64,000 nt of DNA from an uncultured Pseudomonadota bacterium (GTDB lineage: Bacteria; Myxococcota_A; Polyangia; Fen-1088). A program made the position numbers and the translations under genes. Each line of letters starts with the position of its first letter. Position 1 is the stretch's first letter. Of this stretch, positions 32,873-52,182 are shown piece after piece. The stretch covers positions 1 to 64,000 of the forward strand of contig CAWKBC010000035.1 in NCBI GenBank assembly GCA_963847705.1, written 5' to 3'. Below the pieces are notes generated by a model. That model ran no database searches. It was given only the letters and a program-made list of their open reading frames with translations, and was not told where the DNA came from.

Positions 32873-32874
32873 TC

Positions 32875-34095: not shown

Positions 34096-35347
34096 TTCGA
34101 CCGTCGGTCCAAGCGCGATCGGGGCCGTGCAGGAGCACAGGGTGCGGTCGCTGCGCGTGCTGATGGTCCTGGAGAGCGATTTCACCCCGCGGGGAGGCGG
34201 CGGCGCGGAGTCGCAGGTCCGGACGCTGGCGCTTCACCTGCTGCGGCTCGGGCACCGAGCGACCGTCGTGACGCCGCTCCTGGCCCGTGGTCGGCAGCTC
34301 ACCGCCGAGCGCCGTGATCGCATCCCGGTCGGTCGCATCCGTTACCCGCGCCTGCCGACGATCGGCGCGGCGGTGATGTGTCTCCGCTTCGGGGCGTTTC
34401 TGCTCGGTCACGGCCGGCGCTACGACGCCTGGCATGTTCACATCGGGCATCACCTGGGCGCCGTCACCTGCTTCGTCGGTGCGCTCGTCGGCAAACCGGT
34501 GGTGGTGAAGATCTCGGGCTCCTGGGAGCTCGAAGAAGGGGTCATGGCTCCCGGTGGCCACAAGCTCTTCGACCGTCTGGCGCTCCGCTGGTTGAAACGC
34601 GCCAGCGCCGTGCAGGCGCTCAGCACGCGCATGGCGGCCGAGCTGACCCGGCGAGGGTTCCCCGTCGAGCGCATCCTGGTGCTACCGAATGCCGTCGACA
34701 CCGCGCGCTTCCCGCCCCGGTCAGCCCCGCGCGCGCCTGGCGCGCCGTTCACCGCGGTGTTCGTGGGCCGGCTGGTCCCCGACAAGGATCTGGCCACGCT
34801 GCTCGAGGCCTGGGCGCAAGCGTTCCCGCCGGGGCAAGCGGTCGACGCCCGGCTGCGGCTCGTGGGTGGCGGACCGCTGGAGGGGCGGCTGCGGGCGCAG
34901 GCGGAGCGGCTGGGGCTGGCGCGGCAGGTCGAATTCCTGGGCCACCGCGATCGGGTCGAGGAGGTGCTGGCCGACGCCGACGTCGGCGTGCTGCCCTCGC
35001 GCATCGAGGGCCTTTCGAACACCCTGCTCGAGTTCATGGCCAGCGGGCTCCCCCCGCTGGCCAGCCGGGTGAGCGGGAGCGAAGACTTCGTGGTCCCCGG
35101 GCGCAACGGCTGGCTCTTCGAGGTCTCGGACGTCTCGGCGCTGGCCGAGGCGCTTCGTGAGGCGAAGGCCCTCCCGCCCGAGAGCCTGGCCGTGATGGGG
35201 CGTCAGGCCCGGGCCGACGTGGAGGTGACCGCGTCGCTCGACATCGTGGCGGCGAGGCTGCAGGCGCTCTATGCGGGCGTGCCCCCGCGCGAGCTGTGGC
35301 CGGGGCTGGCGCCCGGTCCCGCTCCCCCTCTCGCGAGAGGTGCCTAG
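34076..35347 (+). CDS. GT4 glycosyltransferase
   Basis: GGGAE, PNAVD, FVGRL, EGLSNTLLEFMASG. Confidence 0.9.
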   Translation: MLAPAPDSTVGPSAIGAVQEHRVRSLRVLMVLESDFTPRGGGGAESQVRTLALHLLRLGHRATVVTPLLARGRQLTAERRDRIPVGRIRYPRLPTIGAAVMCLRFGAFLLGHGRRYDAWHVHIGHHLGAVTCFVGALVGKPVVVKISGSWELEEGVMAPGGHKLFDRLALRWLKRASAVQALSTRMAAELTRRGFPVERILVLPNAVDTARFPPRSAPRAPGAPFTAVFVGRLVPDKDLATLLEAWAQAFPPGQAVDARLRLVGGGPLEGRLRAQAERLGLARQVEFLGHRDRVEEVLADADVGVLPSRIEGLSNTLLEFMASGLPPLASRVSGSEDFVVPGRNGWLFEVSDVSALAEALREAKALPPESLAVMGRQARADVEVTASLDIVAARLQALYAGVPPRELWPGLAPGPAPPLARGA

Positions 35348-35350
35348 CTC

Positions 35351-37249
35351 ATGTGTGGGATCGCCGGCATCGTCGCCAATCCGGGGGGCGGGCTCCCGGA
35401 CCAGACAATCGGACAGGCGATGACCGACGCCATCACCCACCGCGGCCCCGACGACGACGGGATCTACCGCGACGACCAGGCGATGCTGGGCGTGCGCCGT
35501 CTGTCGATCATCGATCTGCTCGGCGGCCACCAGCCGGCGCACAACGAGGACGGCTCCGTGCAGGCGGTCTGCAACGGCGAGATCTACAACTACCGCGAGC
35601 TGCGCGGCGAGCTCGAGGCGCAGGGACACCGCTTCCACACCCGCTCCGACACCGAGGTGATCGTCCATGCCTATGAAGAATGGGGCGACGATGCCTTCGC
35701 GCACCTGGAAGGCATGTTCGGAATCGCGCTGTGGGACAGGCGCGCGCGCGCGCTGGTCCTGGCCCGCGACCGCTTCGGCGAAAAGCCCCTCTTCTACAGT
35801 CTGCAGCCTGGAGAGACGGGAGACAGGGGAGGTCGGCTGCTCTTCGCCAGCGAGCTCAAGTCGCTGCTGGTGGTCCCTGGGTTCAAGCGCGAGATCGACC
35901 CCGCGGCGGTTCGTTCCTACCTCTGTTTCGGCTACGTCCCCATGCCGGGCAGCATCTTCCGAGACGTCCACAAGCTGCCGCCGGGTCATTCGCTCCGTTT
36001 CGTCGACGGGCGGCTCGAGCTGCGGCGCTACTACCACCTCGAGCTCGAGCCCAAGCACGCGCTCGACGAACACGAGGCCGAGGAACAGCTGGCCACCCTG
36101 CTCGACCAGGCGGTGAAGAGCCGCCTGGTCTCGGACGTTCCGTTCGGCGCCTTCTTGAGCGGCGGGCTCGACTCGAGCGTGGTGGTTGCGCTCATGGCGC
36201 GTCACCTCCAGGCGCCGGTGCAGACGTTCTCCCTCGGTTTCCGCGAGTCCCACTACAATGAGCTGTCCGATGCGCGTCGCGTGGCGAGTCACCTCGAGAC
36301 CGAGCACCACGAGCTGATCGTCAAACCCAACGCGGTCGAGCTCCTCGAGCAGCTGGTCTGGTATCTCGACGAGCCTTTCGCCGATTCGTCGGCGGTGCCG
36401 ACCTACCTGGCGGCCAAGCTCGCGCGCCAGCACGTCAAGATGGTGCTCACCGGCGACGGAGGCGATGAGGCGTTCGCCGGCTACGGCCGCTACCTCCGTT
36501 TCTTGGCGCTGGAGCGGGCGGGGTCCCTCCGGCCGGCGGCCGCCGCTGCGGTGAGGTTCGCGGGGCGATGCGTTCCCGGATCGCGGGGCTATCGCCTGCA
36601 GCGCATCGCGGAGCGCCTCCGGCTGGAGTTCCCCGAGAGCTACCTCTCGGGCGTGGCGCTGACCCGCGCCGACGTCGCCGATCACATCTTGGGCGACGCC
36701 GTCCGCGCCGACGGCGGGGGGCACTACGGCGGGCTCGCCGAGGTGGCCAGGGCGTTCTCCTCTCTTCACCCTCTCGATCGCTGCGTCTCGATCGACTTTG
36801 CCAGCTATCTGCCGGACGACATCCTGGTGAAGTTGGATCGCATGACGATGGCGAACTCGCTCGAAGGACGTGCGCCGTTCCTGAGCCATCACCTGGTGGA
36901 GTTCGCGGTCCGACTCCCCGATACGCTGCGCGTCCGCGACGGACGAGGCAAACATCTGCTCCGCCGCACGGCGGCCCGGTGGCTTCCGCCCGAGGTGCTG
37001 AACAAACCCAAGCAGGGTTTCGCGATCCCGCTCGGACAGTGGTTTCGAGGCCCCTTGGCCGCGCTGGCGGGGGACCTCTTTGCCAGTCGGGCGTTTCGCG
37101 ATCGCGGCCTGCTGCAGCCGGAGGCGGCGCGCCGCTATCTCGACGGTCACCTGCGCGGCGACGCCGATCATGGCGAGCTGCTCTGGTCGATGGTCTCGCT
37201 CGAGCTCTGGGCGCGGCGCTATCTCGACGCCGGGTCGAGTCCGACATAA
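35351..37249 (+). CDS. asnB: Glutamine-hydrolysing asparagine synthase-like amidotransferase
   Basis: MCGIAG, HRGPD, NGEIYNY, LSGGLDSS, LTGDGGDE, KQGFAIP. Confidence 0.92.
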   Translation: MCGIAGIVANPGGGLPDQTIGQAMTDAITHRGPDDDGIYRDDQAMLGVRRLSIIDLLGGHQPAHNEDGSVQAVCNGEIYNYRELRGELEAQGHRFHTRSDTEVIVHAYEEWGDDAFAHLEGMFGIALWDRRARALVLARDRFGEKPLFYSLQPGETGDRGGRLLFASELKSLLVVPGFKREIDPAAVRSYLCFGYVPMPGSIFRDVHKLPPGHSLRFVDGRLELRRYYHLELEPKHALDEHEAEEQLATLLDQAVKSRLVSDVPFGAFLSGGLDSSVVVALMARHLQAPVQTFSLGFRESHYNELSDARRVASHLETEHHELIVKPNAVELLEQLVWYLDEPFADSSAVPTYLAAKLARQHVKMVLTGDGGDEAFAGYGRYLRFLALERAGSLRPAAAAAVRFAGRCVPGSRGYRLQRIAERLRLEFPESYLSGVALTRADVADHILGDAVRADGGGHYGGLAEVARAFSSLHPLDRCVSIDFASYLPDDILVKLDRMTMANSLEGRAPFLSHHLVEFAVRLPDTLRVRDGRGKHLLRRTAARWLPPEVLNKPKQGFAIPLGQWFRGPLAALAGDLFASRAFRDRGLLQPEAARRYLDGHLRGDADHGELLWSMVSLELWARRYLDAGSSPT

Positions 37250-37269: not shown

Positions 37270-37545
37270 ATGGGGATCGACGGAAAATCACTGTCAGAGA
37301 AGGTCACGCGCCTGGTGTTGGAGTACGCACAGACGCCCCCGCCCGAGGCGTCAGCGGGTGCGCCGCTCGATGGAAAGCTGACCTTGCGCGGAGATCTCGC
37401 CGTCGACTCGCTGGCCCTCGTCTCGCTGACGATTCGGCTGGGAGAGGAGCTGGGGGTCGACGTCGTCGAGAGTGGTCTCGATTTCAGTCAACTGGAGACG
37501 ATGGGAGATCTCTTGGCCGTCGCCGAGAAACTCAATCGCCATTGA
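37270..37545 (+). CDS. Acyl carrier protein
   Basis: AGGAG RBS, ATG 37270, 91 aa, DLAVDSLALVSL (Ppant Ser), TMGDL. Confidence 0.85.
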   Translation: MGIDGKSLSEKVTRLVLEYAQTPPPEASAGAPLDGKLTLRGDLAVDSLALVSLTIRLGEELGVDVVESGLDFSQLETMGDLLAVAEKLNRH

Positions 37546-37657
37546 CCGTTTGCGCGTCCTGACCGCCCTCTCCCCCGTCGCACTCAACCTGCCGTAATTG
37601 CTGTTTAATGTCCGGACGTCGGACCCGGAAACCTGGCGTGGCCGTGAAAATCTCCGA

Positions 37658-37687
37658 TTGACCGGGGAGGCCAAAGAATGGTACGAG
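37658..37687 (+). promoter_or_regulatory. Putative sigma70-type promoter for peptide 1
   Basis: TTGACC-N18-TACGAG in a lower-GC intergenic region. Confidence 0.35.
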
Positions 37688-37745
37688 TATGTGCTGGCAG
37701 GTGGTTGTTCAGAGGTCAGCAAACTCGAAGGGGACCAGAGAAATC

Positions 37746-37907
37746 ATGGACGCGAACAAAGACACGGTGACCGAGGGCAGCGAGAAGATCGGCCGGAACT
37801 CTGATGTGGCACCAGTCGCGGGAAACGCCGCCGACGAGGGTGAGTTCAAGATCGAGATCCGAAAGCTGGAAGTCCCGGTCCGCCCGCGCGGCGTCCTGGC
37901 TGAATAG
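37746..37907 (+). CDS. Putative RiPP precursor/scaffold peptide 1 (53 aa)
   Basis: MDANKDTVTEGSEKIGRNSDVAPVAGNAADEGEFKIEIRKLEVPVRPRGVLAE. Last 21 aa identical to the peptide at 42640. Confidence 0.85.
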   Translation: MDANKDTVTEGSEKIGRNSDVAPVAGNAADEGEFKIEIRKLEVPVRPRGVLAE

Positions 37908-37919
37908 GCTCGCCTCAGC

Positions 37920-37949
37920 GCCGCGCCGGCGCAAGGGCGCGGCAAAAAA
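37920..37949. terminator. Stem-loop immediately after peptide 1
   Basis: gccgcgcc-ggcgcaag-ggcgcggc followed by an A-run. Confidence 0.5.
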
Positions 37950-37964
37950 TCGAATGAGGGTTGG

Positions 37965-39905
37965 ATGACCGCGACGAACCTCGCGAAGGCGCCGGTTTAC
38001 TTTGGGACACCCGAGCGGCCTCTGTTCGGGTTCTACCACCCTCCCGCTGGCTCCCGGGTGCGCGGGACGGCGGTGTTGCTCTGCAATCCGCTGGGAGATG
38101 ATCTGATCCGCGCGCATCGTCCCTTCCGGCACCTGGCCGAGGATCTGTCTGCCGCGGGATTCCCCGTCCTTCGGTTCGACTTCGACGGGACGGGAGACTC
38201 GTCGGGAGACGAGCGGGATCCGAATCGCGTGGCCACCTGGCGCGCCGACGTCGGCCGCGCCGCGGCCGACTTGCGCGCGCGCAGCGGCGTGGAGCCGCTG
38301 GCCCTGGTCGGTCTCAGACTGGGGGGAACGTTTGCTGCGTTGGGCGCGGCGGATCTGGGCGGCGTCGACGCGCTCGTTCTGTGGGGCGCTTACGACAACG
38401 GCGGCGCGTTCGTTTCGGAGGCCACGAAAGCTCACAAGATGCACGTGATGCTGCAGCCGACCAGCTTCTCCGGTGGACCGCCGGCCAGCGACGGGCAAGA
38501 GGCGCTCGGCTTCCTGCTGGCGACGCAGACGATCGCCGATCTCGAGGCGATCGATCTCCTGTCGCTGCCCCGCTCGCCCGCCAGACGGACGCTGGTCCTC
38601 GACACCGCGAACGTCGAAACCGACAGCCCGCTGGTGGCGAAGCTGCGGGAGCTGGGTGGGGCGGTCACCCACCGTCACATCCCGGGCAACAAGTTCTTGA
38701 TCATCTCACCCCACCAGTCGGAGGTCCCCACGGCGGCCCTTTCGGCGATCACGGGTTGGCTTTCCGAGGAGTGCCCGTTCGCCGACCGCAGCTCGGCGAC
38801 CAGCGCGATGGCCGGTTCGGCGACCAGCGCGATGGCCGGTTCGGCGACCAGCGCCATGGCCGGTTCGGCGACCAGCGCCATGCCCGGCGTGGCGACCAGC
38901 GCGAGGCCCGGCCAGGCGTCCAACGACGCGAAGACGCCCCCGGCATGGGACGCGGCCCGCACGGTGAACAACCTGCGCGAGCGCCCCGTGTTCTTCGGGG
39001 GGCCTCGAAAACTGTTCGGGATCCTCACGGTGCCGCCGTCGAGCACCGCCCGACCCGATCTTCCGGCCATCATCCTGCTCAACGCCGGCACCGTTCATCG
39101 GGTGGGCTCGCACCGGCTCTACGTGCCGATGGCGCGCAAGTGGGCGGCGCTCGGGTTCCACGTGCTCCGCGTCGATCTCTCGGGGATTGGCGACAGCCCG
39201 GTTCCCGAGGGTCACCCCGAGAACCTCACCTACCCGCGCGAGGGCCTCGAGGACGCACGCGCCGCGATGGACTTCCTCGAGGACACCACGACGAGCGGGA
39301 AGTTCGTCGTCGCCGGTCTCTGTTCGGGCGGCGACATCGCCTTCCAGCTGGGGTTCAAGGAGCCGCGCGTGGCGAGCGCCATCATGATGAACCCGCGCAC
39401 TTTCTTGGTGAACGACCTGAGCATGGTCGATTCGTACGAACGGGCGCGCTGGTCCCAGCAGGCCGTGGCCCACAGCGACTCCTGGAAGGATCTTCTGAGC
39501 GGTGACGTGAACCTCACCCGCGCGTTCAAGCTGGCTGCACCGAAGGTGAAGGACCTGGTCGTGAGGCGTGCGAAACGAGCCATCACGGACCTCATGGGCG
39601 CCGTGCTCCCCAACGCGCCGGCCACCGAACAGCGTCGGGAGACCGACGTTCCCTACTGCCTCCGGTCGATGGCCGAACGCGGGGTCGACACCTACCTGTT
39701 CGTCACCGAGCACGACCCCGGCGTCGACTACGTCGATGCGAACTACGGACCGGCCATGAGCGCGCTCGCGTCGATCCCCAACTTCCGTCGAACCGACGTC
39801 AAGGGGACCGACCACACCTTCACCGCGCGCTGGGCACAGGAGCAGGTCAGCGCGATGATCACCGAGCACCTGACGCGACGATTCTTGGCGGCCCGGGCCG
39901 CGTAA
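37965..39905 (+). CDS. Tandem alpha/beta-hydrolase (putative acyltransferase, EPS-associated type)
   Basis: Domain 1: LRFDFDGTGDS, LVGLRLGG. Domain 2: NAG..HRVG..RLYV, RVDLSGIGDS, GLCSGG, DHTF. Confidence 0.85.
   Translation: MTATNLAKAPVYFGTPERPLFGFYHPPAGSRVRGTAVLLCNPLGDDLIRAHRPFRHLAEDLSAAGFPVLRFDFDGTGDSSGDERDPNRVATWRADVGRAAADLRARSGVEPLALVGLRLGGTFAALGAADLGGVDALVLWGAYDNGGAFVSEATKAHKMHVMLQPTSFSGGPPASDGQEALGFLLATQTIADLEAIDLLSLPRSPARRTLVLDTANVETDSPLVAKLRELGGAVTHRHIPGNKFLIISPHQSEVPTAALSAITGWLSEECPFADRSSATSAMAGSATSAMAGSATSAMAGSATSAMPGVATSARPGQASNDAKTPPAWDAARTVNNLRERPVFFGGPRKLFGILTVPPSSTARPDLPAIILLNAGTVHRVGSHRLYVPMARKWAALGFHVLRVDLSGIGDSPVPEGHPENLTYPREGLEDARAAMDFLEDTTTSGKFVVAGLCSGGDIAFQLGFKEPRVASAIMMNPRTFLVNDLSMVDSYERARWSQQAVAHSDSWKDLLSGDVNLTRAFKLAAPKVKDLVVRRAKRAITDLMGAVLPNAPATEQRRETDVPYCLRSMAERGVDTYLFVTEHDPGVDYVDANYGPAMSALASIPNFRRTDVKGTDHTFTARWAQEQVSAMITEHLTRRFLAARAA
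38793..38912 (+). repeat. 5 x 24-bp repeat in the hydrolase interdomain linker (SATSAMAG)
   Basis: tcggcgaccagcgc[g/c]atggccggt units, degenerating toward the 3' end. Confidence 0.9.
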
Positions 39906-40909
39906 TGGCCTTCAAGGCGCAAGCTGCGCTCGTCAAGGCGGGACCCCTCGAGCCGTTCGAATACGAGCCGCAGGAGCTGGGCGCGACGGACGTCGAGATC
40001 GAGATCTCGCACTGCGGCCTCTGCCACAGCGACATCCACCTGATCGACGACGGCTGGGGGCGCAGCAAGTACCCGCTGGTCCCGGGCCACGAGATCGCCG
40101 GGACTGTCGCGGCCGCAGGCTCGGCCGTCACTCACCTCACCGTCGGCCAGCGGGTCGGCGTCGGCTGGCAGCGAAGCGCTTGCCTGGAGTGCGATCTCTG
40201 CCTGGGCGGCGAAGAGAACCTGTGTCGCAAGCAGCAGGCGACCTGCATGGGCCATCACGGCGGCGTGGCCAACCGGATTCGCCTCGACGGCCGGTTCGCC
40301 TTCGCGCTGCCCGAGACGATGGACAGCGCCGTGGCCGCGCCGCTCCTCTGTGGCGGCGTCACCGTCTTCGCGCCGATGCGGCGCTTCGGGATCGGCGCCA
40401 CCAGCAGCGTGGCGGTGATCGGGATCGGCGGCCTCGGGCACATGGCGCTGCTGATGCTGCGCGCGCTCGGCTGCGAAACGACCGCCTTTTCGACCTCCGC
40501 CGCGAAGAAGGACGAAGCGCTGGCGATGGGAGCTGACCACTTTGCCTCCTCGACCGATCCGAGCGACATCCGTAAACACTTCGGCCGCTTCGATCTGGTG
40601 CTGTCGACCGTTCACGCCCGGCTCGACTGGACCACCTATCTCCAGACGCTGAGGGCCAACGGGACGCTCTGCCTGCTGGGGATGCCGCCGGGTGTCATTC
40701 AATTCCCGCCCGCCCTGCTGGTGACCGGCCAGCGCTCGATCACGGGCAGCGACATCGGCAGCCGGAAGGTCATTCGGGAGATGCTCGCCTTCGCGGCGCG
40801 CCACAAGGTGGCCCCGCAGATCGAGCGGATGCCGATGGCCGAGGCCAACGCGGCCTTGACGCGGCTGCGGCAGAACCAGGTGCGGTACCGCGTCGTCCTG
40901 GAGAATTAG
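39905..40909 (+). CDS. Zn-dependent NAD(P) alcohol dehydrogenase (cinnamyl-alcohol DH / YahK-Ahr family)
   Basis: CGLCHSD, PGHEI, CLECDLC..NLC, APLLCGG, GIGGLGH, YRVVL. TAATG coupling to the hydrolase. Confidence 0.92.
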   Translation: MAFKAQAALVKAGPLEPFEYEPQELGATDVEIEISHCGLCHSDIHLIDDGWGRSKYPLVPGHEIAGTVAAAGSAVTHLTVGQRVGVGWQRSACLECDLCLGGEENLCRKQQATCMGHHGGVANRIRLDGRFAFALPETMDSAVAAPLLCGGVTVFAPMRRFGIGATSSVAVIGIGGLGHMALLMLRALGCETTAFSTSAAKKDEALAMGADHFASSTDPSDIRKHFGRFDLVLSTVHARLDWTTYLQTLRANGTLCLLGMPPGVIQFPPALLVTGQRSITGSDIGSRKVIREMLAFAARHKVAPQIERMPMAEANAALTRLRQNQVRYRVVLEN

Positions 40910-40972
40910 ACGTCGGGCGGCCGCCCGGTGGTGGGCGGGGCACGACTCGCGTAGATTCTCGCTTCCGGGAGC

Positions 40973-42560
40973 ATGGAAATGAACGTTCAACTCTTCGACA
41001 GCACGTTGCGTGACGGCACGCAGAGCGAGGGTCTCTCCCTCTCCGTGGAGGACAAGCTCAAGATCTCGCGCCTGCTGGACGGCTTCGGCATCCACTACAT
41101 CGAGGGGGGCTACCCCGGGTCGAACCCGAAGGACGTCGAGTTCTTCCAGCGCGCCAAGTCGGTCACCTTCCGCCACGCCAAGCTGACCGCATTCGGGATG
41201 ACCCGCAAGCCGGGCGGGCGCGCCGACAGCGATCCGATCCTGGCGGCGATGGTGGCCGCCGAGACCCCCGCGGTCGCCGTGGTCGGAAAGACCTGGACGT
41301 TGCACGTCACCAAGATCGTCGGCACCACGCTGGAAGAGAACCTGGCGATGGTCGCGGACAGCGTCGCCTTCCTCAAGCAGAAGGGGCGCGAGGTGGTGTT
41401 CGACTGCGAGCACTTCTTCGACGGCTTCCGCGCCGATCCCGACTACGCGCTGGCGGTGGTCAAGGCCGCCTCGGCGGCGGGGGCCGACTGGATCGCCATG
41501 TGCGACACCAACGGCGGCAGCCTGCCGGGGACGATCACCGAGGTGGTTGGCGCGGTCAAACGGGCGGTCCTCACCCCGCTCGGGATTCACACCCACAATG
41601 ACTGCGACGTGGCGGTGGCCAACGCCTTCGCCGGGATCGAGGCCGGCTGTACCCAGGTGCAGGGGACGATGAACGGCTGGGGCGAGCGGTGCGGGAACGC
41701 CAATTTGATCTCGGTCATCGCCGGGCTGCAACTGAAGATGGGCCGGCGCTGCGTGCCGGAGGAGAACCTGGCCCGCCTCACCGAGCTCTCGCGGGCGGTC
41801 AGCGAGATCGCCAACATTCGCCCGCGCGCGCACGCCCCCTACGTGGGTCACTCGGCGTTCGCGCACAAAGGGGGGATGCACGTCGCCGCGGTGGAGAAGA
41901 TCCCCGCCAGCTACGAGCACATCGTCCCCGAGCGGGTCGGCAATCGGCGCCACATCGTCGTCTCGGAGCTGTCGGGGCGCGGCAACGTCCGCATGCGCGC
42001 CGGGGAGCTGGGAATCGACGTGCAAGGGAACGAAAAGCGCGTCCTCGAGCACATCAAGGAGCTGGAGAGCCAGGGCTACCAGTTCGAGGCGGCCGAGGGG
42101 TCGTTCGAGCTGCTCGGGCGACGCAGCCAGCCAAGCTACGTGGCCCCCTTCGACGTCCTCGACCTGGTCGTCATCTCGGAGCGGCGCCGCGGCAACTCGA
42201 TGTTCGCCGAGGCGACCGTGAAGCTGAAGATCGGCAACGAGAATCGTCCACGAGGTCGCGGAGGGGTCCGGGCCGGTGCACGCGCTCGACGGGGCCTTCC
42301 ACAAGGCGTTGAACCCTCACTTTCCGACGCTGCGCGACGTTCGCCTGGCCGACTACAAGGTTCGAATCCTAGATCCTGACGCGGCGACCAGCGCCAAGAC
42401 GCGCGTCCTCATCGAGGCGGCGCGCGGCGAGGAGCGCTGGAGCACCATCGGCGTGTCGCAGAACATCATCGAGGCCAGCGCCACAGCCCTGGCGGACGCT
42501 CTGGAGTTGCCGCTGGCCCGCCTCGCCTCCGCCCGGATTCCCGAGAGTGCCGCCGGCTGA
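40973..42560 (+). CDS. cimA: Citramalate synthase (LeuA family), apparent +1 indel at 42242-42243
   Basis: DSTLRDGTQ, YIEGGYPGSNPKD, GIHTHND, GERCGN, AFAHKGGMH. Removing one A joins ORFs 40973-42379 and 42276-42560 as NEIVHEVAEGSGPVHALD..DYKVRIL..WSTIGVSQNIIEAS (528 aa). Confidence 0.88.
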
Positions 42561-42639
42561 ATGCGCGGTTCCGGGGAAGAAAATGGTCAGCACTCCGTTG
42601 GTTGATTGGTTAGAATTCCAATACCACGGGGGAGCTCAA

Positions 42640-42795
42640 ATGGACGCCAACAAGAACCAGACCACCGACACCAAAGACACCATCATCCCGACCGACGGCG
42701 CGCCAGCGCCCGCGACCGGAGATGACGCCGAGTTCAAGATCGAGATCCGGAAGCTGGAAGTTCCGGTCCGCCCGCGCGGCGTCCTGGCAGAATAG
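42640..42795 (+). CDS. Putative RiPP precursor/scaffold peptide 2 (51 aa)
   Basis: GGGAG RBS. MDANKNQTTDTKDTIIPTDGAPAPATGDDAEFKIEIRKLEVPVRPRGVLAE. Confidence 0.85.
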   Translation: MDANKNQTTDTKDTIIPTDGAPAPATGDDAEFKIEIRKLEVPVRPRGVLAE

Positions 42796-42809
42796 TCGCC
42801 TCGATCTCA

Positions 42810-42834
42810 CGCGGGATCCTCAAGGGATCCCGCG
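42810..42834. terminator. Palindrome after peptide 2, between convergent genes
   Basis: cgcgggatcc-tcaag-ggatcccgcg. Confidence 0.6.
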
Positions 42835-42849
42835 CCCTCGCAACACGCG

Positions 42850-44538
42850 TCAGTCCGCGCGCTCGATCCGGAGTGCTCCGCGGGAATTTCGAAACGGGGC
42901 GAACGCAGCGTGAAGCTTGCGCCGCTGGATCTTGCCGGTGTGCGTGCGGGGAATCGGCGTCGTGCCGTAGAGAATGATCTTGGGGCGCGCGTCGAGCGGC
43001 ATCTCGCCCACCACCTTGGTGAGGCGGGCGCGCAGCTCGTCGGCGAGCTCTTCATTCTCGAGGTAGAGGCCGATCTCCTCGCCGTGAACGTCGTGCGGAA
43101 ATCCGAGCGCGACCAGCCGGCCCTCGATCTCCGGCAGCTCGGTCACGATCCGCCGCTCGATCGCCAAAGGGCTGAACTTGTCGCCGTCCCGGATGATCGT
43201 CTCCTTGATCCGTCCGGTGATGAAGAACGCCGGCCCGCCCGCCGAGGCTTGGGGCTCGCCGGCTTGCTGTCCGCCTGCGGAGGCGAGGGGCCCGCCCGCG
43301 GAGCCTCGAGGCTGGCCTGCCTGCTGAAAGAAACCCTCGTCGCCCGTCCGCAGCCAGCCGTCTGCCCCGAGCGTCGCCGCCGTCGCGCCTTCATCACGAA
43401 AGTAAGACAGCATGGTGCTGTGGCCGCGCACGCACAGCTCGCCGCGCTGGTCGGCCGGCAGCGTCGCCCCATCGGCGCCGACGACCTTCACCTCGGTCCC
43501 CGGCAGCGGGCTCCCGATGCAGGTCAGCTCTCCGCCGTAAAGGAGCCGCCGTCGTTCATCCTCGGCCAGATCGGCCGGAAGGCAGCAGGCGAAGTTGGTG
43601 TACTCGGACAGCCCCCAACCTTGCAGCAGACGGAGGTTGGTCTTCTCCTCGAAGGCGCGGGCCAGACTCACGGTCAGGGGCGCCGACGAGACGAGAACTG
43701 CGCGCAGCGTCGGGAGCTTCTCGGCGCGGACGCCGAGCTGCAGGAGAGGCTGCAGCAGCGTCGGGACCACGCTGGTCAAGGTGACCGACTCGACCCGGAG
43801 GACCTCGCCCCAGGCGAACGGATCGAACCGCTCCATGAAGACGAGGTGCCCGCCGGTGGTCAGCGTGGTCATCAGGCCGAACCCCAGCGCGTGCGCGTGG
43901 TAGAGCGGCAGCACCGCCAGCTGCGTCTCGTCCTCGAAGCGAAAATTGAGCGCCATGCTCCAGGCGTTGGCGAGCAGGCTCCCTTGCCCCAGCGCGACGC
44001 CTTTGGGATTCCCGGTGGTCCCGGAGGTGTAAAGGACGATCGCCATCTGCTTCTCCAGCGACCTCGCGGCCGCGGGCGCCGCCGCCGCGGGAGGCGGTGA
44101 CGCGCCGCCGCCGCCGGCATCGGGCACCGTCTCGTCCTCGAAGGCACAGACGACGGCGGGACGGGCCACCAGCCAATCGAGCAGCTCACGCGCGCCGAAG
44201 ACGAGACGCGCCTCCGAGTGCGCCAGGATGTAGTCCCAGTCCGCGGGCGGCGTCGTTGGATTGAGCGGGACGACGGCGGCGCCGAGCTGCATGGCTGCCA
44301 GAAAGAGCGCTGGGACCTCCAGCCGATTGGGCGAGAGGACCGCGACGCAATCTCCCTGCCGCACGCCGAGCTCGTCCCTCAGCCGGCGCGTGAATCGCTC
44401 GACAGCGCCGAGCAGCTCCCCGTAGGTCCAGTGCCCCGCGCGTGTCTTGCCTTTGTAAAAGGTGAGCGCCGGCCGTCCCGCAGGGAGGCGGGCGAGACCG
44501 TCCAGCAGGGCGGGGATGTCCTCGAAGCGTGTCGTCAT
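42850..44538 (-). CDS. Adenylate-forming (ANL) acyl-CoA/acyl-ACP ligase
   Basis: LYTSGTTGNPKG, QGWGLSE, WLRTGD, ITGRIKE, PRTHTGKIQR. Confidence 0.92.
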   Translation of the reverse strand: MTTRFEDIPALLDGLARLPAGRPALTFYKGKTRAGHWTYGELLGAVERFTRRLRDELGVRQGDCVAVLSPNRLEVPALFLAAMQLGAAVVPLNPTTPPADWDYILAHSEARLVFGARELLDWLVARPAVVCAFEDETVPDAGGGGASPPPAAAAPAAARSLEKQMAIVLYTSGTTGNPKGVALGQGSLLANAWSMALNFRFEDETQLAVLPLYHAHALGFGLMTTLTTGGHLVFMERFDPFAWGEVLRVESVTLTSVVPTLLQPLLQLGVRAEKLPTLRAVLVSSAPLTVSLARAFEEKTNLRLLQGWGLSEYTNFACCLPADLAEDERRRLLYGGELTCIGSPLPGTEVKVVGADGATLPADQRGELCVRGHSTMLSYFRDEGATAATLGADGWLRTGDEGFFQQAGQPRGSAGGPLASAGGQQAGEPQASAGGPAFFITGRIKETIIRDGDKFSPLAIERRIVTELPEIEGRLVALGFPHDVHGEEIGLYLENEELADELRARLTKVVGEMPLDARPKIILYGTTPIPRTHTGKIQRRKLHAAFAPFRNSRGALRIERAD

Positions 44539-44545
44539 CGTCTCA

Positions 44546-45137
44546 TCACCGCGCGGGCCCGAACGCGTAGGCGTAGGAGGCCTGAATCCGCTCCGAGAGG
44601 ACGCTCAGAATCCTCCATCGAGTTTCTCCAGTCGATGTCGGGCGCCGCCTCTTCCAGCGTGGTGACGCCGAAGTAGAGCGGTTGGAAGCCCATCTTGACG
44701 TAGGCCTTGGCGTAGTCGGCGGCGACGGCCATCTCGTCGTCGAACACGGCCGCCCGGTGGCCGAGGCCAGGATAGTTGGACTTGGCGAACAATCCGACCT
44801 TACCGGCGTCGTTCCAGTGCAGCGCCACGCAGTGGCCGCACTCCTCGCCCGACACGGGATCGATGCGATGGATGGCCAGGAGGCGCCGTTTGACGTCGCC
44901 GAAGAGAAGCTCCAGCAGCCCGTAGGCGAGGATGGCGGAGTCGATGCAGGTGATCTTGGGGGCGTGCAGGGACGACCGGACCGACTGCACGCGGTAAGCG
45001 GTCCGCCAGTCCTCCAGATAGCCGATTCCGTCCAGCACGCGCCGGATGTCCTCTGGCGACTCGAACGGCCCGCCGCCGCCGAGCTCCCGAATGCGGCGGA
45101 ACTCGGCCTCTCCGTACGTGAGCGGCCCTGAGGACAA
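44546..45137 (-). CDS. Transglutaminase/papain-like Cys-His protein (apparent +1 indel at 44609-44610)
   Basis: ITCIDSAILA, ECGHCVAL, GLFAKSNYPGL. Removing one base gives ...DWRNSMEDLSVLSERIQASYAYAFGPAR* (TGA 44546-44548). Confidence 0.6.
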
Positions 45138-45146
45138 GCCCGCGGC

Positions 45147-46145
45147 CTACTCGGAGAGCAGATCGCTCGGCGCGCGCGGCATGGTCGGGAAGCGGGCGTA
45201 GAAGGTGTCGATTCCGTCCATGAAGAGATAGAGGTGCTCGGCCATCGAGCGGACGATGTTGAGCGCGTCGTCCACCTCGGCCCGCGTGAGCGGCGGAATG
45301 CTCTGGCACATCTCCAGGAAGACGTTCTCGTGCCCGAGCTTCTGGTCGGCGTTGGTGTGCGCGATGAAGGAGTCGATCACCTTGTCGGTGTACGGGTAGT
45401 GCTTGCGCATCGCCGCGTAGAAGTCGTCGATCGAGCTGGCGTCCTTGTCGTCGCCGGTGTTCTCGGTCATCTGCAGGAGCTCGTTCCCGGCGTAGTAGCC
45501 GAACGAGTTGCGCCCGGCCGACTCGCTGAGGAAGTTCACCAGCGCGCGCGTGCTCGGCAGCGGCTGCGCCCGCAGCACGGTGTCGTCCGGGAAGAGGCTG
45601 CGCAGCCCCTTGCGGTAGATGTCGCCGTGGTTGTACTCCTCGATGAAGTGCCGCGCGAGGTGCGGCATCATCTCGGGCGTGGCGTTGGCGGCCGCGATGG
45701 CCATGTGCTCGAACGCCCCCTCGATGTAGTGGTACTTCTCGAAGGCGAACCCCAGCACCTGCGCGCGCGAAGCCTTGCCGGTCACGATCTTCTCCCACAG
45801 CGGGTGGTCGTAGATCGGCTGCAGCCAGTGGGTCACGTACTTGCGGTGGATCTCGTAGAACTGCTCGCCGGAGATCCGCTCACCGTCGTCGTCCTTGAAC
45901 GCCAGCACGCCGGTCTGACCGAGCTGCTGCGAGAGCGACTGGACCCGCTTGGGTGACTCCGCGATCCGCTCGGCGATGCTCCCCACGCCGGTGGAGCCGT
46001 CGAGATAAGGCAGCATCTTGTCGAGCAGCCGCGCGGCCGCCCCCTCGAGCAAGACCTCTTGACCCATGTACTCGATGGCCAGCTTGTCGGCGTCACGTCG
46101 CACGACCTTGGCCGTGCGCTTCAGAACAGGTAATTGCGTCTGCAT
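45147..46145 (-). CDS. RRE-like wHTH domain fused to heme-oxygenase-like diiron oxidase (PqqC/CADD-like) #2
   Basis: N-terminal beta-strands plus LDGSTGVGSIAERI..VQSLSQQLGQTGVL; HPLW, EKYHY, HFIEEYNH, AHTNADQKLGH. Confidence 0.8.
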   Translation of the reverse strand: MQTQLPVLKRTAKVVRRDADKLAIEYMGQEVLLEGAAARLLDKMLPYLDGSTGVGSIAERIAESPKRVQSLSQQLGQTGVLAFKDDDGERISGEQFYEIHRKYVTHWLQPIYDHPLWEKIVTGKASRAQVLGFAFEKYHYIEGAFEHMAIAAANATPEMMPHLARHFIEEYNHGDIYRKGLRSLFPDDTVLRAQPLPSTRALVNFLSESAGRNSFGYYAGNELLQMTENTGDDKDASSIDDFYAAMRKHYPYTDKVIDSFIAHTNADQKLGHENVFLEMCQSIPPLTRAEVDDALNIVRSMAEHLYLFMDGIDTFYARFPTMPRAPSDLLSE

Positions 46146-46157
46146 GGGGTCCCCTTA

Positions 46158-47153
46158 CTAATCGAGCAACTTGCTGAACTTCGGCCGCGGCATCGGGTTC
46201 GACTCGACGCCGTAGTACTTCTCGATGCTGTCCGTCCAGAGCCAGATGTGCTCGATGAGCTGGTGGCCGTACTCGAGGACGCGCCCGGCGCGCGTAGCCG
46301 GGATCTCCTTGACGGTGCTGAGGATGTCGAGGAACAGATCGGAGTGCTGGTACTGCACGTCCAGGTCGAGGTGCGCGTAGATGGGCGCGATTGACTCCGG
46401 CGGCAGCTTGTAAAGCTCGGCGCACTTTTCGTAGTACGGGTTGTAGGCGCCGCGGTTGACGGTGGTCCCCTCGAGAACTGCCGAGCAGATCGAGTAGGCG
46501 AGGATGTCTTCACGGGCGGCCTGGCGCATGAAGTTCGACAGCGCCAGCGACATGGGAAGCGGGACCGAGTTGATCACGCTCTCCTCGCTGAAGCCGAGCG
46601 CCTTGAGCGCCTTGAGGAAGTAGTGGTAGTGGTTCCACTCCTCCGCGTAGTGCTTGGCGCGCATGTTCTTGATCGACTTCTCCTTGGTGTGAGCACAGGA
46701 GAGCGGCATGTGGCGGTTGGCGTTCCGCGTGTAGTGATAGAGCTCGATGAGCCACCCCGAGTACATGCGGCGCGAGCCGTTCCCGCTGGTCATCCGCTCC
46801 CAGAACGGATGCGAGAACGCCTCGTCGAGCCAGCTCGGCAAGATCTTGTTGAAGAGCGTGTGGAGCTCGACGCCGCTCAACGTCGCCGGAACCGCGTCCT
46901 GGCGATAGAGGAGACCGGCGCTCTCCAGCGCCTTCGTCAGCCGGCCGAGGCGCGCCTCGTCCATCCCCAGATCGGCCGCGATCTCCTTCTGCGACTGGAC
47001 GCTCGGAACCCGCTCCGCCAACTTTTCGTAAAGGGCAAACTCACGGTTGCCGAGCTGGACCTCGCGGTCGCTCAGTCTGACGGATACGCTGTCCCCCTTC
47101 GGAGCCGCCTCATAGACTCTCCGAACCCCAAATTCTTGACCCATGGTTGCCAT
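46158..47153 (-). CDS. RRE-like wHTH domain fused to heme-oxygenase-like diiron oxidase (PqqC/CADD-like) #1
   Basis: N-terminal SQKEIAADLG..LGRLTKALESAGLL; HPFW, ELYHY, HYAEEWNH, VLE, AHLDLDVQYQH. Confidence 0.8.
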   Translation of the reverse strand: MATMGQEFGVRRVYEAAPKGDSVSVRLSDREVQLGNREFALYEKLAERVPSVQSQKEIAADLGMDEARLGRLTKALESAGLLYRQDAVPATLSGVELHTLFNKILPSWLDEAFSHPFWERMTSGNGSRRMYSGWLIELYHYTRNANRHMPLSCAHTKEKSIKNMRAKHYAEEWNHYHYFLKALKALGFSEESVINSVPLPMSLALSNFMRQAAREDILAYSICSAVLEGTTVNRGAYNPYYEKCAELYKLPPESIAPIYAHLDLDVQYQHSDLFLDILSTVKEIPATRAGRVLEYGHQLIEHIWLWTDSIEKYYGVESNPMPRPKFSKLLD

Positions 47154-47807: not shown

Positions 47808-47840
47808 GCGAGCCTCCCTTTTTAACAGCTCATGCCATCC

Positions 47841-49364
47841 ATGAGATCCACCATCACCTCCCTCGGGCATTCCGGGCTGGACATCCGTCTTGGATCCGCC
47901 CGGATCGTCTGCGACCCCTGGCTCTCCCAGCGTGGCGCCTACCTCGCCAGCTGGCACCAGTTTCCCCGCAACGATCACCTGGTGGCGAGCGATCTGCACG
48001 ACACCCCGAACCTCTTCATCAGCAGCCCCCGTCCGGATCACTTCGACGTCGAGACGTTGCGCGGATTCCCCAGGACCGTGCGCGTCATCCTTCCCAGGCT
48101 GGCCTCCCCCACGCTGGCCCAGCAGGTGCGTGCGCTCGGGTTCAGCCAGGTCCTGGAGCTCGGCGATGGCGAGCCGGTCGACCTCGGGGAGGGCGCGCGG
48201 CTTTTTCTGTTGGCCTCGCGGGCCCAGCACCTCCTGGGCGCCGCGCTGGTGATCGAACGCGAGGGCCAGGTGATCGTCGATCAAAACGACTGCCCGCTGG
48301 ATGATGCGGCGCTCGACCGGATCGCGGCGTTGAAGCCGGCCGTCCACCTCCTTCAGTTCTCGGGCGCCTCTTACTTCCCCGCGGTCTACGACTTCTCGCC
48401 GGAGCGAATGAAGACGGAGGTCGAACGGGAGGTCGCTGTCATCGCGCGGCGTTTCTTCGACACGGCCACGCGGGCCGGCGCGCGCCACGTCGTCCCCTCG
48501 GGGGGCCCCCCCTGCTTCGTCGACGAACGCGGGTTCGAGCTGAACTTCGGGGGGAGCATCTTCTTCGACGCCGACGAGCTCCTGGCGCGCGCCGCGCGCG
48601 AGGCGCCGCAGCTCCGCGACCGGCTGCACCCCCTCTATCCCGGAGACGTCGCCGCGCGCGACGGCGGAGACTGGAGCTTCGCCGGCCACAGACCGTATGA
48701 CGACAAGCGCAGCTACCTCGCTGCCCACCGCGACCTGCGGGGCCCGGTGCGCCAGAGCTACCTGACCGAGCGGCGCGCGGAGGCGGAGCCGGTCGACAGC
48801 AAGGACTTCCGATCTTACTTGCGCGATTTCTTCCAGTTCGAGGACATGACCGCGGACCTGAGAACCATCATTCAGTTTCGCCTCACCGACGGGCCGTCGG
48901 TCTGGATCGACTTTCGAAAAAAGCCGTACCGCTACCTGACGGAGTGCGAGGAGCCGGCCGCTCACGTCCTGACCCTGGAGAGCGCCTGGGTGAGCCTGGT
49001 GTTGCAGGGGAAGCTGACCTGGCACGAGCTTCTGATGAGCCGGGAGGTGACCATCACGCGCGATCCCGATCGCGAGGTCCCCAAGCTGATGCAACACTTC
49101 GACTACCGTCACGACGAGGCGCTGTTCGATCTGGTGCGGCTCCTCGATCCCGCGCTCATCACGGTGCAGGACGAGCAGATGGAGTACGTCTGCCAGCGCT
49201 TCTGTCCTCATCGCGGGCGCGACCTCGAGTACGCGGTCATCGAGCGCGGCGTGCTCACCTGCACCGCCCACGGCTGGCGGTTCGATCTCCGAAAGGGGGG
49301 GCGCTGCCTCTGGGGCGGTGAGACGCCGCTGCTGGTGAAAGAGATTCGCCCGCTCAGCCGGTAG
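47841..49364 (+). CDS. MBL-fold protein with C-terminal Rieske [2Fe-2S] domain
   Basis: LGHSG, CDPWL, SW.QFP, DQND, PSGGPPCF; Rieske CPH...CTAHGWRFD. Start 47841 or 47832. Confidence 0.8.
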   Translation: MRSTITSLGHSGLDIRLGSARIVCDPWLSQRGAYLASWHQFPRNDHLVASDLHDTPNLFISSPRPDHFDVETLRGFPRTVRVILPRLASPTLAQQVRALGFSQVLELGDGEPVDLGEGARLFLLASRAQHLLGAALVIEREGQVIVDQNDCPLDDAALDRIAALKPAVHLLQFSGASYFPAVYDFSPERMKTEVEREVAVIARRFFDTATRAGARHVVPSGGPPCFVDERGFELNFGGSIFFDADELLARAAREAPQLRDRLHPLYPGDVAARDGGDWSFAGHRPYDDKRSYLAAHRDLRGPVRQSYLTERRAEAEPVDSKDFRSYLRDFFQFEDMTADLRTIIQFRLTDGPSVWIDFRKKPYRYLTECEEPAAHVLTLESAWVSLVLQGKLTWHELLMSREVTITRDPDREVPKLMQHFDYRHDEALFDLVRLLDPALITVQDEQMEYVCQRFCPHRGRDLEYAVIERGVLTCTAHGWRFDLRKGGRCLWGGETPLLVKEIRPLSR

Positions 49365-49471: not shown

Positions 49472-50377
49472 GTGACGTCGACCAGACCGTCCCGGCTGAA
49501 GGCAGCCCTGAAGGTGATCCGGCTGCACCAGTGGTCGAAGAACGCGCTGGTCGTGGTGCCCTTGCTCCTGGCGCCGCACGGCCTGTCGTCGATCCAGGTG
49601 GCGCACGCGGCGCTGGCGGCGCTGGCGCTCAGCCTGTGCGCCTCCGCCGGCTACGTCTTCAACGACCTCATGGACGTGGCGGCCGATCGCGCCCATCCCA
49701 CCAAGAACCGGCGGCCGTTCGCCTCCGGCGCGCTCCCGACCAGCTATGGTCCGCCGCTCATCCTCGGGCTCCTGGCGGTCAGCGTGGCCATCTCGCTTTA
49801 TGCCCTGCCGAAGTCGTTCTTCGCGATGCTGGTGCTCTACTTCGCTATCACGCTCAGCTACTCGTTCTACCTGAAGAGCCTGCTGCTGATCGACGTCATC
49901 GTCCTGGCCTGGCTCTACACCCAGCGCGTGCTGGCGGGGGGATTCGCCACCGGCGTCTCCATCAGCGCCTGGTTGCTGGCCTTCTCGATGTTCATCTTCC
50001 TGAGCCTGGCTTTTGCGAAACGCCACATCGAGCTGCGCCACGCCCTCGATGAGTCCGGGAAGCTGCGCAGCCGCGGCTACTACGCGCAAGATCTGAGCAT
50101 GGTCGTTTCGATGGGAACCACCGCCGGCTACCTGGCCGTGCTGGTGTTCTGCCTCTACATCGAGAGCAGCGCGGGGAACGTCATCTATTCACAGCCGAGG
50201 ATCCTCTGGCTGATCAGTCCGGTGTTGCTCTACTGGATCAGCCGCGTCTGGTTCCTGACCCATCGCGGGGAGATGCACGACGACCCCGTGAAGTTCGCTC
50301 TCACCGACCGCCGGAGCTGGCTCTGCGCGCTGGCCGTGGGCGCCATCGCGATCGCCGCCCGCTTCTGGCCGGCGTAG
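49472..50377 (+). CDS. UbiA-family prenyltransferase (decaprenyl-phosphate phosphoribosyltransferase-like)
   Basis: RLHQWSKN, YVFNDLMD..ADRAHPTK.RRPFASG, LAFAKR, HDDPV.FA. Confidence 0.88.
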   Translation: MTSTRPSRLKAALKVIRLHQWSKNALVVVPLLLAPHGLSSIQVAHAALAALALSLCASAGYVFNDLMDVAADRAHPTKNRRPFASGALPTSYGPPLILGLLAVSVAISLYALPKSFFAMLVLYFAITLSYSFYLKSLLLIDVIVLAWLYTQRVLAGGFATGVSISAWLLAFSMFIFLSLAFAKRHIELRHALDESGKLRSRGYYAQDLSMVVSMGTTAGYLAVLVFCLYIESSAGNVIYSQPRILWLISPVLLYWISRVWFLTHRGEMHDDPVKFALTDRRSWLCALAVGAIAIAARFWPA

Positions 50378-50380
50378 AGT

Positions 50381-50490
50381 GTGGGACCCTGGGAGGGTCC
50401 CACGCCCCCCGCGATGGCTCGCGCGAGCAAAGCTCGCGGTCCCCCTGCGCGATCAGCTCGGGTCCCTCCGAGGGTCCCGCGCCCCCCGCG
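50381..50490. repeat. REP-like palindrome cluster between convergent genes
   Basis: gtgggaccct-ggg-agggtcccac, gcgagcaaagctcgc, and a second imperfect gggtccctccgagggtccc. Confidence 0.6.
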
Positions 50491-50491
50491 C

Positions 50492-52045: not shown

Positions 52046-52182
52046 CCCCACGGATCGATCATGGGAATGACGACGCTGGAGAGCGGCGCACGCACGTGGC
52101 CAGGGCACAATAGCAGACAAACGGGCGGCTCCCGCCGAACCTGAGGCGTGGGCGCTGAGCTTCTCGTCCTTATCTTTGCCGC

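Follow-up and report, generated by a model that had tools for sequence, protein, structure and literature searches.

The 64,000-nt stretch of DNA analysed here (the window) is part of contig C35 of an assembly (6.1 Mb, 85% complete) from an uncultured Polyangia bacterium. Between positions 37270 and 47153 it carries a gene cassette in which two short peptides are encoded together with a pair of heme-oxygenase-like diiron oxidases (HDOs), a cysteine protease, a ligase, an alcohol dehydrogenase (ADH), an acyl carrier protein (ACP) and a double alpha/beta-hydrolase. The cassette is real and conserved, apparently undescribed, and files under peptide-scaffolded biosynthesis of the RiPP (peptide made by the ribosome and modified after translation) type. 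It is tentatively proposed, with somewhat less than an even chance of being right, that the peptide tail is sacrificed to give a small acid, which would be carried as acyl-ACP to a surface glycan. All genes named in an original prediction for this region are present, in the order and orientation claimed:

37270..37545, + strand: ACP with a DSL motif (PF00550, E 0.0023; NCBIfam ACP matches below cut-off)
37746..37907, + strand: candidate precursor or scaffold peptide 1, 53 aa, ending EFKIEIRKLEVPVRPRGVLAE (sequence; tail conservation)
37965..39905, + strand: fused double alpha/beta-hydrolase, predicted acyl-ACP transferase (TIGR03101- and TIGR03100-like halves, both below cut-off)
39905..40909, + strand: Zn-dependent alcohol dehydrogenase/aldehyde reductase, Ahr-like (NF047908, 418 bits against a cut-off of 470)
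40973..42560, + strand: citramalate synthase cimA, frameshifted at 42241 in the assembly (TIGR00977 above cut-off)
42640..42795, + strand: candidate precursor or scaffold peptide 2, 51 aa, ending EFKIEIRKLEVPVRPRGVLAE (sequence)
42850..44538, - strand: ANL (AMP-forming) ligase of the acyl-CoA-ligase type, predicted ACP loader (PF00501)
44535..45137, - strand: CPR-C4/vasohibin-fold cysteine protease (Cys64 and His102 invariant, L001 numbering; 7ob6, E 2.7e-10)
45147..46145, - strand: RRE-HDO 2, an N-terminal domain resembling a RiPP recognition element (RRE) followed by an HO-like diiron domain (PF14518/PF03070; ligand motif)
46158..47153, - strand: RRE-HDO 1, of the same architecture (PF14518/PF03070; structural model; ligand motif)

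The cassette is found across a set of related genomes of soil myxobacteria. A scan of GTDB genomes with HDO1 returned 30 loci in 29 metagenome-assembled genomes (MAGs) at 59-97% identity; all 30 loci come from MAGs, no cultured host is among them, and the closest named loci are from Polyangia/Myxococcota MAGs. In the following, L-numbers label loci and G-numbers label genomes. By tblastn over the 30 loci, HDO2 was found at 29, the protease and the ligase at 28 each, the ADH at 24, the hydrolase at 22, the ACP at 21 (with its [DE]S motif kept) and the peptide at 20, and most absences coincided with contig ends; because the genomes are related and incomplete, these cassette counts are not independent and describe rather than test the association. 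Eight of the nine genomes with peptide-less loci carry the peptide on another contig (4 plus 4 of 5), and on split assemblies the off-locus peptide adjoins the ACP and/or the hydrolase. The original prediction staked itself on a RPRGVLAE peptide accompanying HDO homologues, and such a peptide is present in 28 of the 29 genomes with an HDO. Its expectation of co-occurrence held as well in this comparison, as the homologues keep peptide, protease, ligase, ADH, hydrolase and ACP. Among 89 genomes of the host family, the HDO pair, the protease and the ligase all occur in the same 13; the peptide is found in these 13 and, as an orphan, in one more, and 39 of the genomes have double hydrolases. No HDO match was found in a 400-genome sample of the phylum.

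One gene inside the cassette does not belong to it. The original prediction counted cimA among the pathway genes, which was not borne out. cimA is a housekeeping passenger because it is single-copy in 26/26 genomes of the genus, including 14 without the HDO pair, and it was found at only 8/30 loci. As a pathway gene it was therefore rejected. Relative to L001 and L009, the window has a single extra base in cimA (42241) and another in the protease (44609), the latter shifting the last ~20 codons. L001 is itself frameshifted in other genes, so the two extra bases are likely to be assembly errors.

The peptides show conservation concentrated at the C-terminus. The two peptide genes predicted earlier, with their common tail, are present at the coordinates given above; peptides 1 and 2 have their last 21 residues in common, and their acidic N-terminal halves differ. 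The tail of this precursor type, called E-type here, is ...RKLEVPVRPRGVLAE. In the last nine codons of 23 sequences (L012, whose tail ends DG, was left out of this count), the third position varies in 9/9 columns and 7/9 residues are invariant. The tail residues R-P-R-G-V-L-A are invariant apart from a single replacement of V, and the final position holds E in 21 sequences and D in 2. As variation is synonymous while residues stay fixed, the codon pattern indicates that the tail is under purifying selection and conserved beyond chance. A strand-like motif, EF[KRQ]x[ET][IV][RK]KL, lies upstream of the tail. In other words, a short precursor gene with a conserved core adjoins the enzymes, as is characteristic of RiPP and scaffold-peptide systems. 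The one orphan copy observed without its cassette (L196:5917-6096, G463, genome 76% complete) lies between cimA and the acetyltransferase GNAT, the rest of the cassette being absent at the site, and its tail has drifted to RARG in place of RPRG.

The two oxidases are distant from each other, being 25% identical, and each keeps a full ligand set: E172, H175, E228, H261, D265 and H270 in HDO1, and E170, H173, E222, H263, D267 and H272 in HDO2. The pattern E-x2-H, E, H-x3-D-x4-H, which by its motif is taken to supply the diiron ligands, is kept with little or no change in 36 HDO1 and 28 HDO2 sequences. PqqC, of the same fold, is cofactor-free, whereas the HDOs keep the diiron ligand set. PF14518 scores above cut-off for HDO1 and just above for HDO2. 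A structural model of HDO1 (pLDDT 91.6) consists of an N-terminal domain of three strands and three helices (beta3-alpha3) and a helical bundle; the bundle matches 3dde (Z 23.5) and CADD (Z 20.4, root-mean-square deviation 2.5, 206 residues aligned), and further structural matches are HrmI, PqqC (Z 18.5), 5vrd (Z 17.3), FlcD, UndA and BesC (for UndA chemistry, see the pertinent part of the review PMC11350588). Fold match and ligand set thus agree with the predicted HO-like diiron oxidases.

Evidence for the predicted RRE comes from the beta3-alpha3 model and from profile matches. With a profile of 32 N-terminal sequences, the scores were weak: E 1.1e-4 for the PbtF RRE, matched from position 10 to 84, and E 0.0077 for PqqD. 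These two were the only solved chains matched over both strands and helices. Winged-helix regulators matched mainly in the helical half, and for one the E-value was slightly better. Searching the ESM Atlas with the N-terminal domain led to unnamed PF14518/PF03070 clusters and gave a lead of 0.81 to a PqqD-HDO cluster. A quick tree of 56 rows places E-type HDO1 together with the first HDOs from distant clusters (SH-aLRT 84) and HDO2 with their second HDOs (SH-aLRT 94). It follows that the HDO1/HDO2 split probably predates the split between E-type and the K-type clusters described below, and that the two roles are probably old. The two HDOs are accordingly read as predicted diiron oxidases, presumably non-redundant, each with a predicted peptide-docking RRE.

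The oxidases are part of a wider family in which other peptide tails occur. Searching with a profile brought up 692 relatives when clustered at 50%. Some of them are fused double-HDO proteins, 600-716 aa long, that retain both ligand sets (P0127, P0130, P0133, P0138 and P0141, and a ~600-aa group from P0182 onwards); genomic context is seen for Tistrella. Among 68 loci of distant members in metagenomes (L036-L103), 55 have a peptide ending in K; 48 were found near the HDO by a tail pattern and 7 by inspection, and as the pattern was written after the first examples had been seen, the count of 48/68 is not a blind one. These K-type tails (GVIVK, GGIAK, GALVK) are preceded by a strand motif such as EITVRVS. 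K-type partners include a class III aminotransferase (GSAM-like) at 21 loci, an aldehyde dehydrogenase at 12, a B12 radical SAM protein at 8 and an aldo-keto reductase at 4, and some loci have a third HDO or a 2-oxoglutarate dioxygenase. At K-type loci, no counterpart was detected of the protease, ligase, ADH, ACP or hydrolase seen in the window, and the E-type peptide profile found nothing real in 73 distant loci. At five plasmid loci of cultured bacteria, mostly unannotated peptides lie upstream of the HDO genes. Three have VHL tails (L105:7492-7575, L107:7491-7562 and L108:5525-5707, in Robbsia, Rhodococcus and Tistrella) and two have MCG tails (L104:6823-6906 and L106:7447-7650, in Bacillus cereus and Rhizobium etli). 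Among the neighbours of distant relatives are MFS/EamA exporters and aminotransferases.

That distant HDO pairs carry equivalent C-terminal-tail peptides supports the peptide as the HDO substrate, with its reactive end at the C-terminus. Aldehyde handling appears to be the common thread, because K-type partners include an aldehyde dehydrogenase, an aminotransferase and an aldo-keto reductase; this suggests an aldehyde product of the HDO step. Could the peptide instead be a partner that is not consumed, resembling SVBP for vasohibin or acting as a regulator, while the HDOs oxidise a free metabolite? Most solved relatives of the fold (UndA, BesC, HrmI, FlcD) act on small molecules, and among the matches to the N-terminal domain there are winged-helix DNA-binding proteins too. 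However, the regulators match its helical half only, HDO pairs without the protease still come with a peptide, and conservation reaches the stop codon in every subfamily, all of which leaves a non-substrate role very improbable.

The other enzymes are consistent with work on a peptide end and on a small acid. The original prediction called one of them transglutaminase-like; a cysteine protease it is, and the generic transglutaminase identity was replaced, on fold and dyad, by a CPR-C4/vasohibin-like one. The protease is a relative of CPR-C4 (7ob6, E 2.7e-10; TM 0.76) with the vasohibin fold (VASH1, E 8e-9), and Cys64, His102 and many basic residues (L001 numbering) are invariant or nearly so; fold and Cys-His dyad thus place it with the CPR-C4/vasohibin proteases. 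In the part of the literature source drawn on here (PMC9108980), vasohibins are described as removing a C-terminal Tyr; for CPR-C4 it reports a pocket of positive charge, cleavage of casein and no known substrate. The cassette protease is predicted, by analogy, to be carboxypeptidase-like. The ligase is closest to solved oxalate- and malonyl-CoA ligases and has the motif LP[LF][YF]HAHA of the acyl-CoA-ligase type. It presumably lacks the amino-binding Asp of the adenylation domains of non-ribosomal peptide synthetases (NRPSs).

In the fused hydrolase, the elbow of the N-terminal half reads GLRLG, with no nucleophile, and the C-terminal half has GLCSG and DHTFT, with a Cys nucleophile. Because the first elbow carries Arg and the second half keeps GxCSG and DH across 23 orthologues and paralogues, the double hydrolase, to judge from its motifs, has one Cys active site. 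A Cys-nucleophile alpha/beta arrangement is also found in acyl-transferring enzymes such as polyhydroxyalkanoate synthase. The linker between the halves (~38790-38940) contains a fourfold SATSAMAG-type repeat, which makes the window's copy longer than its orthologues. Another polysaccharide locus of the same genome harbours a second double hydrolase (L034:10820-12703, G000:C30), accompanied by an ACP of its own and by two hexapeptide acyltransferases.

How might these parts work together? Gene content, conservation, folds, catalytic motifs and co-occurrence are what can be observed; each chemical step of the tentative pathway, like its acceptor, is put conditionally. The RRE domains would dock on the strand motif EFKIEIRKL, so that the tail RPRGVLAE is offered to both oxidases. 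The oxidases may act at the last residues and free a small carboxylated fragment as an aldehyde. The vasohibin-like protease might trim the acidic last residue first or free the product later, a C-terminal trimming role being considered because its fold is that of vasohibins, which remove C-terminal residues. The ADH would then reduce the aldehyde to a hydroxy acid, the simplest guess being a C4 unit from Glu. The ANL ligase would adenylate the hydroxy acid and load it on the ACP; a small acid is favoured at this step because the ligase's closest counterparts are small-acid CoA ligases. Finally, the Cys-nucleophile hydrolase half may move the acyl unit to a glycan or a lipid-linked repeat unit. 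Given its E/D/DG variation, the acidic last residue may be the product itself or a cap that is removed beforehand.

A different arrangement of the same enzymes is a reusable carrier peptide similar to LysW and other amino-group carrier proteins (AmCPs), in which the ligase would join a substrate to the terminal carboxylate, the HDOs and ADH would transform it, and the protease would release it and regenerate the peptide. LysW chemistry acts on a terminal Glu. An acidic C-terminal residue, an acidic leader and the restriction of ligase and vasohibin-like protease to E-type clusters would suit such a carrier. The cassette has one ligase, however, and the ACP needs loading; K-type clusters have the same HDO pair with such a ligase and protease not detected; and D and DG tails occur. 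A carrier role is accordingly judged fairly improbable.

Indirect evidence for a glycan acceptor comes from the neighbourhood of the cassette. In the window it is flanked by the following features:

32069..37249, + strand: left glycan block of a polysaccharide deacetylase, two GT4 and an AsnB-type amidotransferase; candidate acceptor pathway
47208..~47801 (start approximate), - strand: RimJ/RimL-type GNAT, accessory (PF13302; 10/30 loci)
47832..49364, + strand: MBL-fold/SCP2/Rieske protein, accessory (8/30 loci)
49472..52267: right flank with a UbiA-family prenyltransferase (+) and a Wzx flippase (-)

A further GT4 lies on the right flank beside the UbiA-family and Wzx genes. A glycan-gene match was found at 13/24 loci of at least 10 kb, against 18/441 (13-kb) and 17/261 (21-kb) windows of the host genome, each locus's own genes having been removed from the query set (background ~5%), and a manual Pfam tally placed glycan genes at 17/30 loci. 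The glycan genes differ between loci and include GT2, GT4, Wzx, Wzy_C, MBOAT/AlgX, sugar-nucleotide enzymes and export proteins. The separate half-cassette belonging to L024 also adjoins deacetylase, export and PF02719 genes.

More specific evidence comes from genomes related to the window. In G462, G463 and G468, both the deacetylase/GT4/AsnB block and the cassette are absent from the same chromosomal site, where G463 and G468 keep Wzx and GNAT. In G416, which has no cassette, orthologues of the window's Wzx (54%), AsnB (69%) and GT4b (68%) adjoin another ACP-loading cassette, at whose end stands a member of the same double-hydrolase family; its GNAT is ~40% identical to the window's. The matching cassette of G415 contains an aa:carrier-protein ligase (NF005479 above cut-off), an ACP, DUF1839 and an acyl-CoA dehydrogenase. 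Because G416 has this other loading cassette beside the same Wzx, AsnB, GT4b and hydrolase family, we read the gene sets as interchangeable acyl-generating modules that would feed one predicted ACP/hydrolase transfer step. Cassettes of this second type (L185-L189) are seen in several family genomes and consist of an acyl-CoA dehydrogenase, an NF005479 ligase, DUF1839, GNAT, AcpS, ACP, a GH2-like protein and a double hydrolase; in G416 and G415 they adjoin glycan genes.

The link to polysaccharide loci claimed in the original prediction thus stands in part, with glycan genes enriched and modules swapped. Several observations weigh against it and against the pathway proposed above. No glycan-synthesis gene was found within the ~10-kb flanks of seven long loci (L004, L008, L013, L016, L017, L022 and L025). 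Orthologues of the window's AsnB, Wzx and deacetylase occur in 1, 2 and 1 of the 30 loci. Double hydrolases of the same family also occur without nearby glycan genes (L183-L185), and in the L013 genome the ACP and hydrolases are at another place, with no glycan-synthesis gene among those scanned there. At L009 the ACP is missing from the locus, and the ACPs of that genome are only 44% identical. The N-terminal domains of the HDOs have no Pfam or NCBIfam RRE or PqqD match, only matches to helix-turn-helix families. The last residue of the peptide is mostly E, with D at L010, L019 and L200 and DG at L012, so that Glu as the product fits poorly. The invariant RPR could be the modified site instead, as with VarO, an HO-like protein compared below. 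To these is added that the counts, coming from related genomes, are not independent.

On the glycan side, these points bear on a diffusible small metabolite, an antimetabolite or signal as proposed for gvg-like clusters, with the glycan neighbours reflecting shared insertion hot-spots. The exporters and aminotransferases beside distant relatives and the seven long loci without glycan genes would agree with this, and cimA shows that passengers get trapped at the site. Yet the E-type core has no exporter and keeps an ACP and hydrolase, the flanking glycan genes vary by locus, and the hydrolase family and ACP occur in glycan loci with other loading modules; a diffusible product is consequently rather improbable.

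On the peptide side, the alternative is a RiPP that is acylated or carrier-linked. The HDOs would change internal residues (e.g., Arg desaturation in RPR), the protease would excise a short core, which the ligase, the ACP and the hydrolase would acylate or, as a whole, anchor to the envelope. RPRGVLA is invariant while the last residue varies, VarO offers a precedent, CPR-C4 cut casein and hence is not necessarily exo-acting, and ligase, ACP and transferase together follow the known logic of lipidated RiPPs. Nevertheless, K-, HL- and CG-type peptides have no RPR, yet have the strand motif and a G-V-x-x-X-type tail; an exporter is missing from the conserved core; and the ligase has small-acid ligases as its closest match. 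An acylated RiPP is unlikely on this evidence, though it keeps an appreciable share of the probability. Sacrifice of the tail for a small acid destined for the glycan thus remains the preferred pathway, at the tentative level stated at the outset.

The genes flanking HDO1, namely GNAT and the MBL/SCP2/Rieske protein, were absent from the original prediction. GNAT is retained also in relatives that lost the cassette. In other clades, a PaiB/FMN_bind_2 (PF04299) gene upstream of HDO1 occupies the GNAT position of the window's clade (L012, L013, L015, L018, L020, L021, L023, L025, L027 and L028), and a gene similar to this type is seen in 3 K-type loci. The three-domain MBL-fold/SCP2/Rieske protein (47832-49364) is confined to a close clade of cassettes. 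In L004:4263-9462 (G461), a one-module NRPS (C-A-PCP), an ACP and a second double hydrolase lie directly upstream of HDO1. In L202:1102-3777 (G489), radical SAM and ATP-grasp genes adjoin the ACP-peptide-hydrolase half.

What would the cassette mean? Read cautiously, it represents peptide-directed diiron chemistry of an undescribed class, for which a substrate is at hand to test, and its peptide is the first candidate to be the natural substrate of a bacterial protease of the vasohibin/CPR-C4 type. If the proposed pathway is true, a ribosomal peptide sequence would specify the decoration of a surface polysaccharide, which would be categorically new; RiPP chemistry would be linked for the first time to carrier-protein-dependent glycan acylation; and the long-unassigned hydrolase-1/2 and ACP sets would become directly testable as acyl transferases. 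A broader reading is that tandem RRE-diiron oxidases form a widespread and uncharacterised family whose members release small building blocks from the C-termini of E-, K-, HL- and CG-type peptides, possibly including the unexplained GvgB/GvgC step of FVG formation (see gvg below), with the E-type peptide sacrificed to template a polysaccharide substituent. Taken as a whole, this broader reading is a possibility that leans towards doubt.

The claim that no characterised pathway matches the cassette has held up against the PQQ (pyrroloquinoline quinone), lasso, pearlin, thiovarsolin and exosortase-A systems, all of which the cassette falls outside. No description of the RRE-HDO pair or of the RPRGVLAE peptide was found in the open literature searched, with subscription journals mostly outside it, and RRE surveys do not mention the family in the main text or in one supplement, as far as the parts covered go. 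The thiovarsolin system of Streptomyces varsoviensis is a partial parallel. In the portion of the source that was available (PMC6511847), deletion of VarO removes the Arg double bond in thiovarsolins; like the cassette, the system combines an HO-like protein with a ribosomal peptide, with APR/GPR in place of the invariant RPR. Unlike the cassette, it is described there with a single HO-like protein, YcaO/TfuA and a repeating precursor, and no ACP, ligase or glycan link is reported in that portion, so the two are set apart by description. Among the window genes and scanned flank families there is no YcaO/TfuA pair and no repeating precursor, the cassette peptide being single-core. To go by the title of a cited work, N-Calpha cleavage by an iron enzyme has reportedly been found in a RiPP.

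PQQ biosynthesis resembles the cassette in combining a short peptide, an RRE and an HO-like fold (PqqA, PqqD and PqqC; PqqCD fusion 5VRD), the peptide being consumed for a small molecule. It differs in that the window HDOs fail TIGR02111 and the cassette has no PqqB/PqqE, no Glu-x3-Tyr, no Tyr in the peptide and no radical SAM protein in its core. The gvg clusters possibly provide a precedent, by analogy, and their kinship may bear on novelty. As far as the portions of the sources cited go (10.1101/080572, PMC8064604), gvgB is a required 27-aa Lys-rich open reading frame whose last 8-9 residues align between species, GvgC is a ~710-aa HO-domain protein, and gvg also has an esterase, an aminotransferase and a carbamoyltransferase core. 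The size of GvgC matches that of the fused double HDOs of the family, a comparison by description only. The product, 4-formylaminooxyvinylglycine (FVG), is an exported amino acid derived from homoserine (PMC13232609). gvg thus differs in its exported product, its carbamoyltransferase core and its lack of an ACP and ligase, and no carbamoyltransferase is present in the cassette core.

AsnB was considered as a lasso cyclase and rejected: it passes TIGR01536, fails NF033535 and occurs at 1/30 loci, and the protease is CPR-C4-like. The PEARL (small LanB) ligase that defines pearlins is absent from the window genes and scanned flanks, and the conserved core has no PEARL/LanB, MNIO or ATP-grasp gene. 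Like the exosortase-A set and the aa:carrier-protein-ligase cassettes (NF005479/NF005480), the cassette has an ACP and a hydrolase pair in polysaccharide loci with AsnB. Unlike in these systems, its hydrolases are fused, and peptide, HDOs, protease, ANL ligase and ADH replace the decarboxylase or tRNA-synthetase homologue; the exosortase-A models score below cut-off in the window (TIGR03098 130/592, TIGR03100 122/168 and TIGR03101 99/203 bits). With CPR-C4 the cassette protease has the fold and the Cys/His dyad in common, and this CPR-C4 homologue co-occurs strictly with the peptide and the HDO pair. With pearlins (TglA/AmmA) and LysW carriers, the cassette would have in common that chemistry takes place at the C-terminus of a scaffold peptide and that a protease frees a small product.

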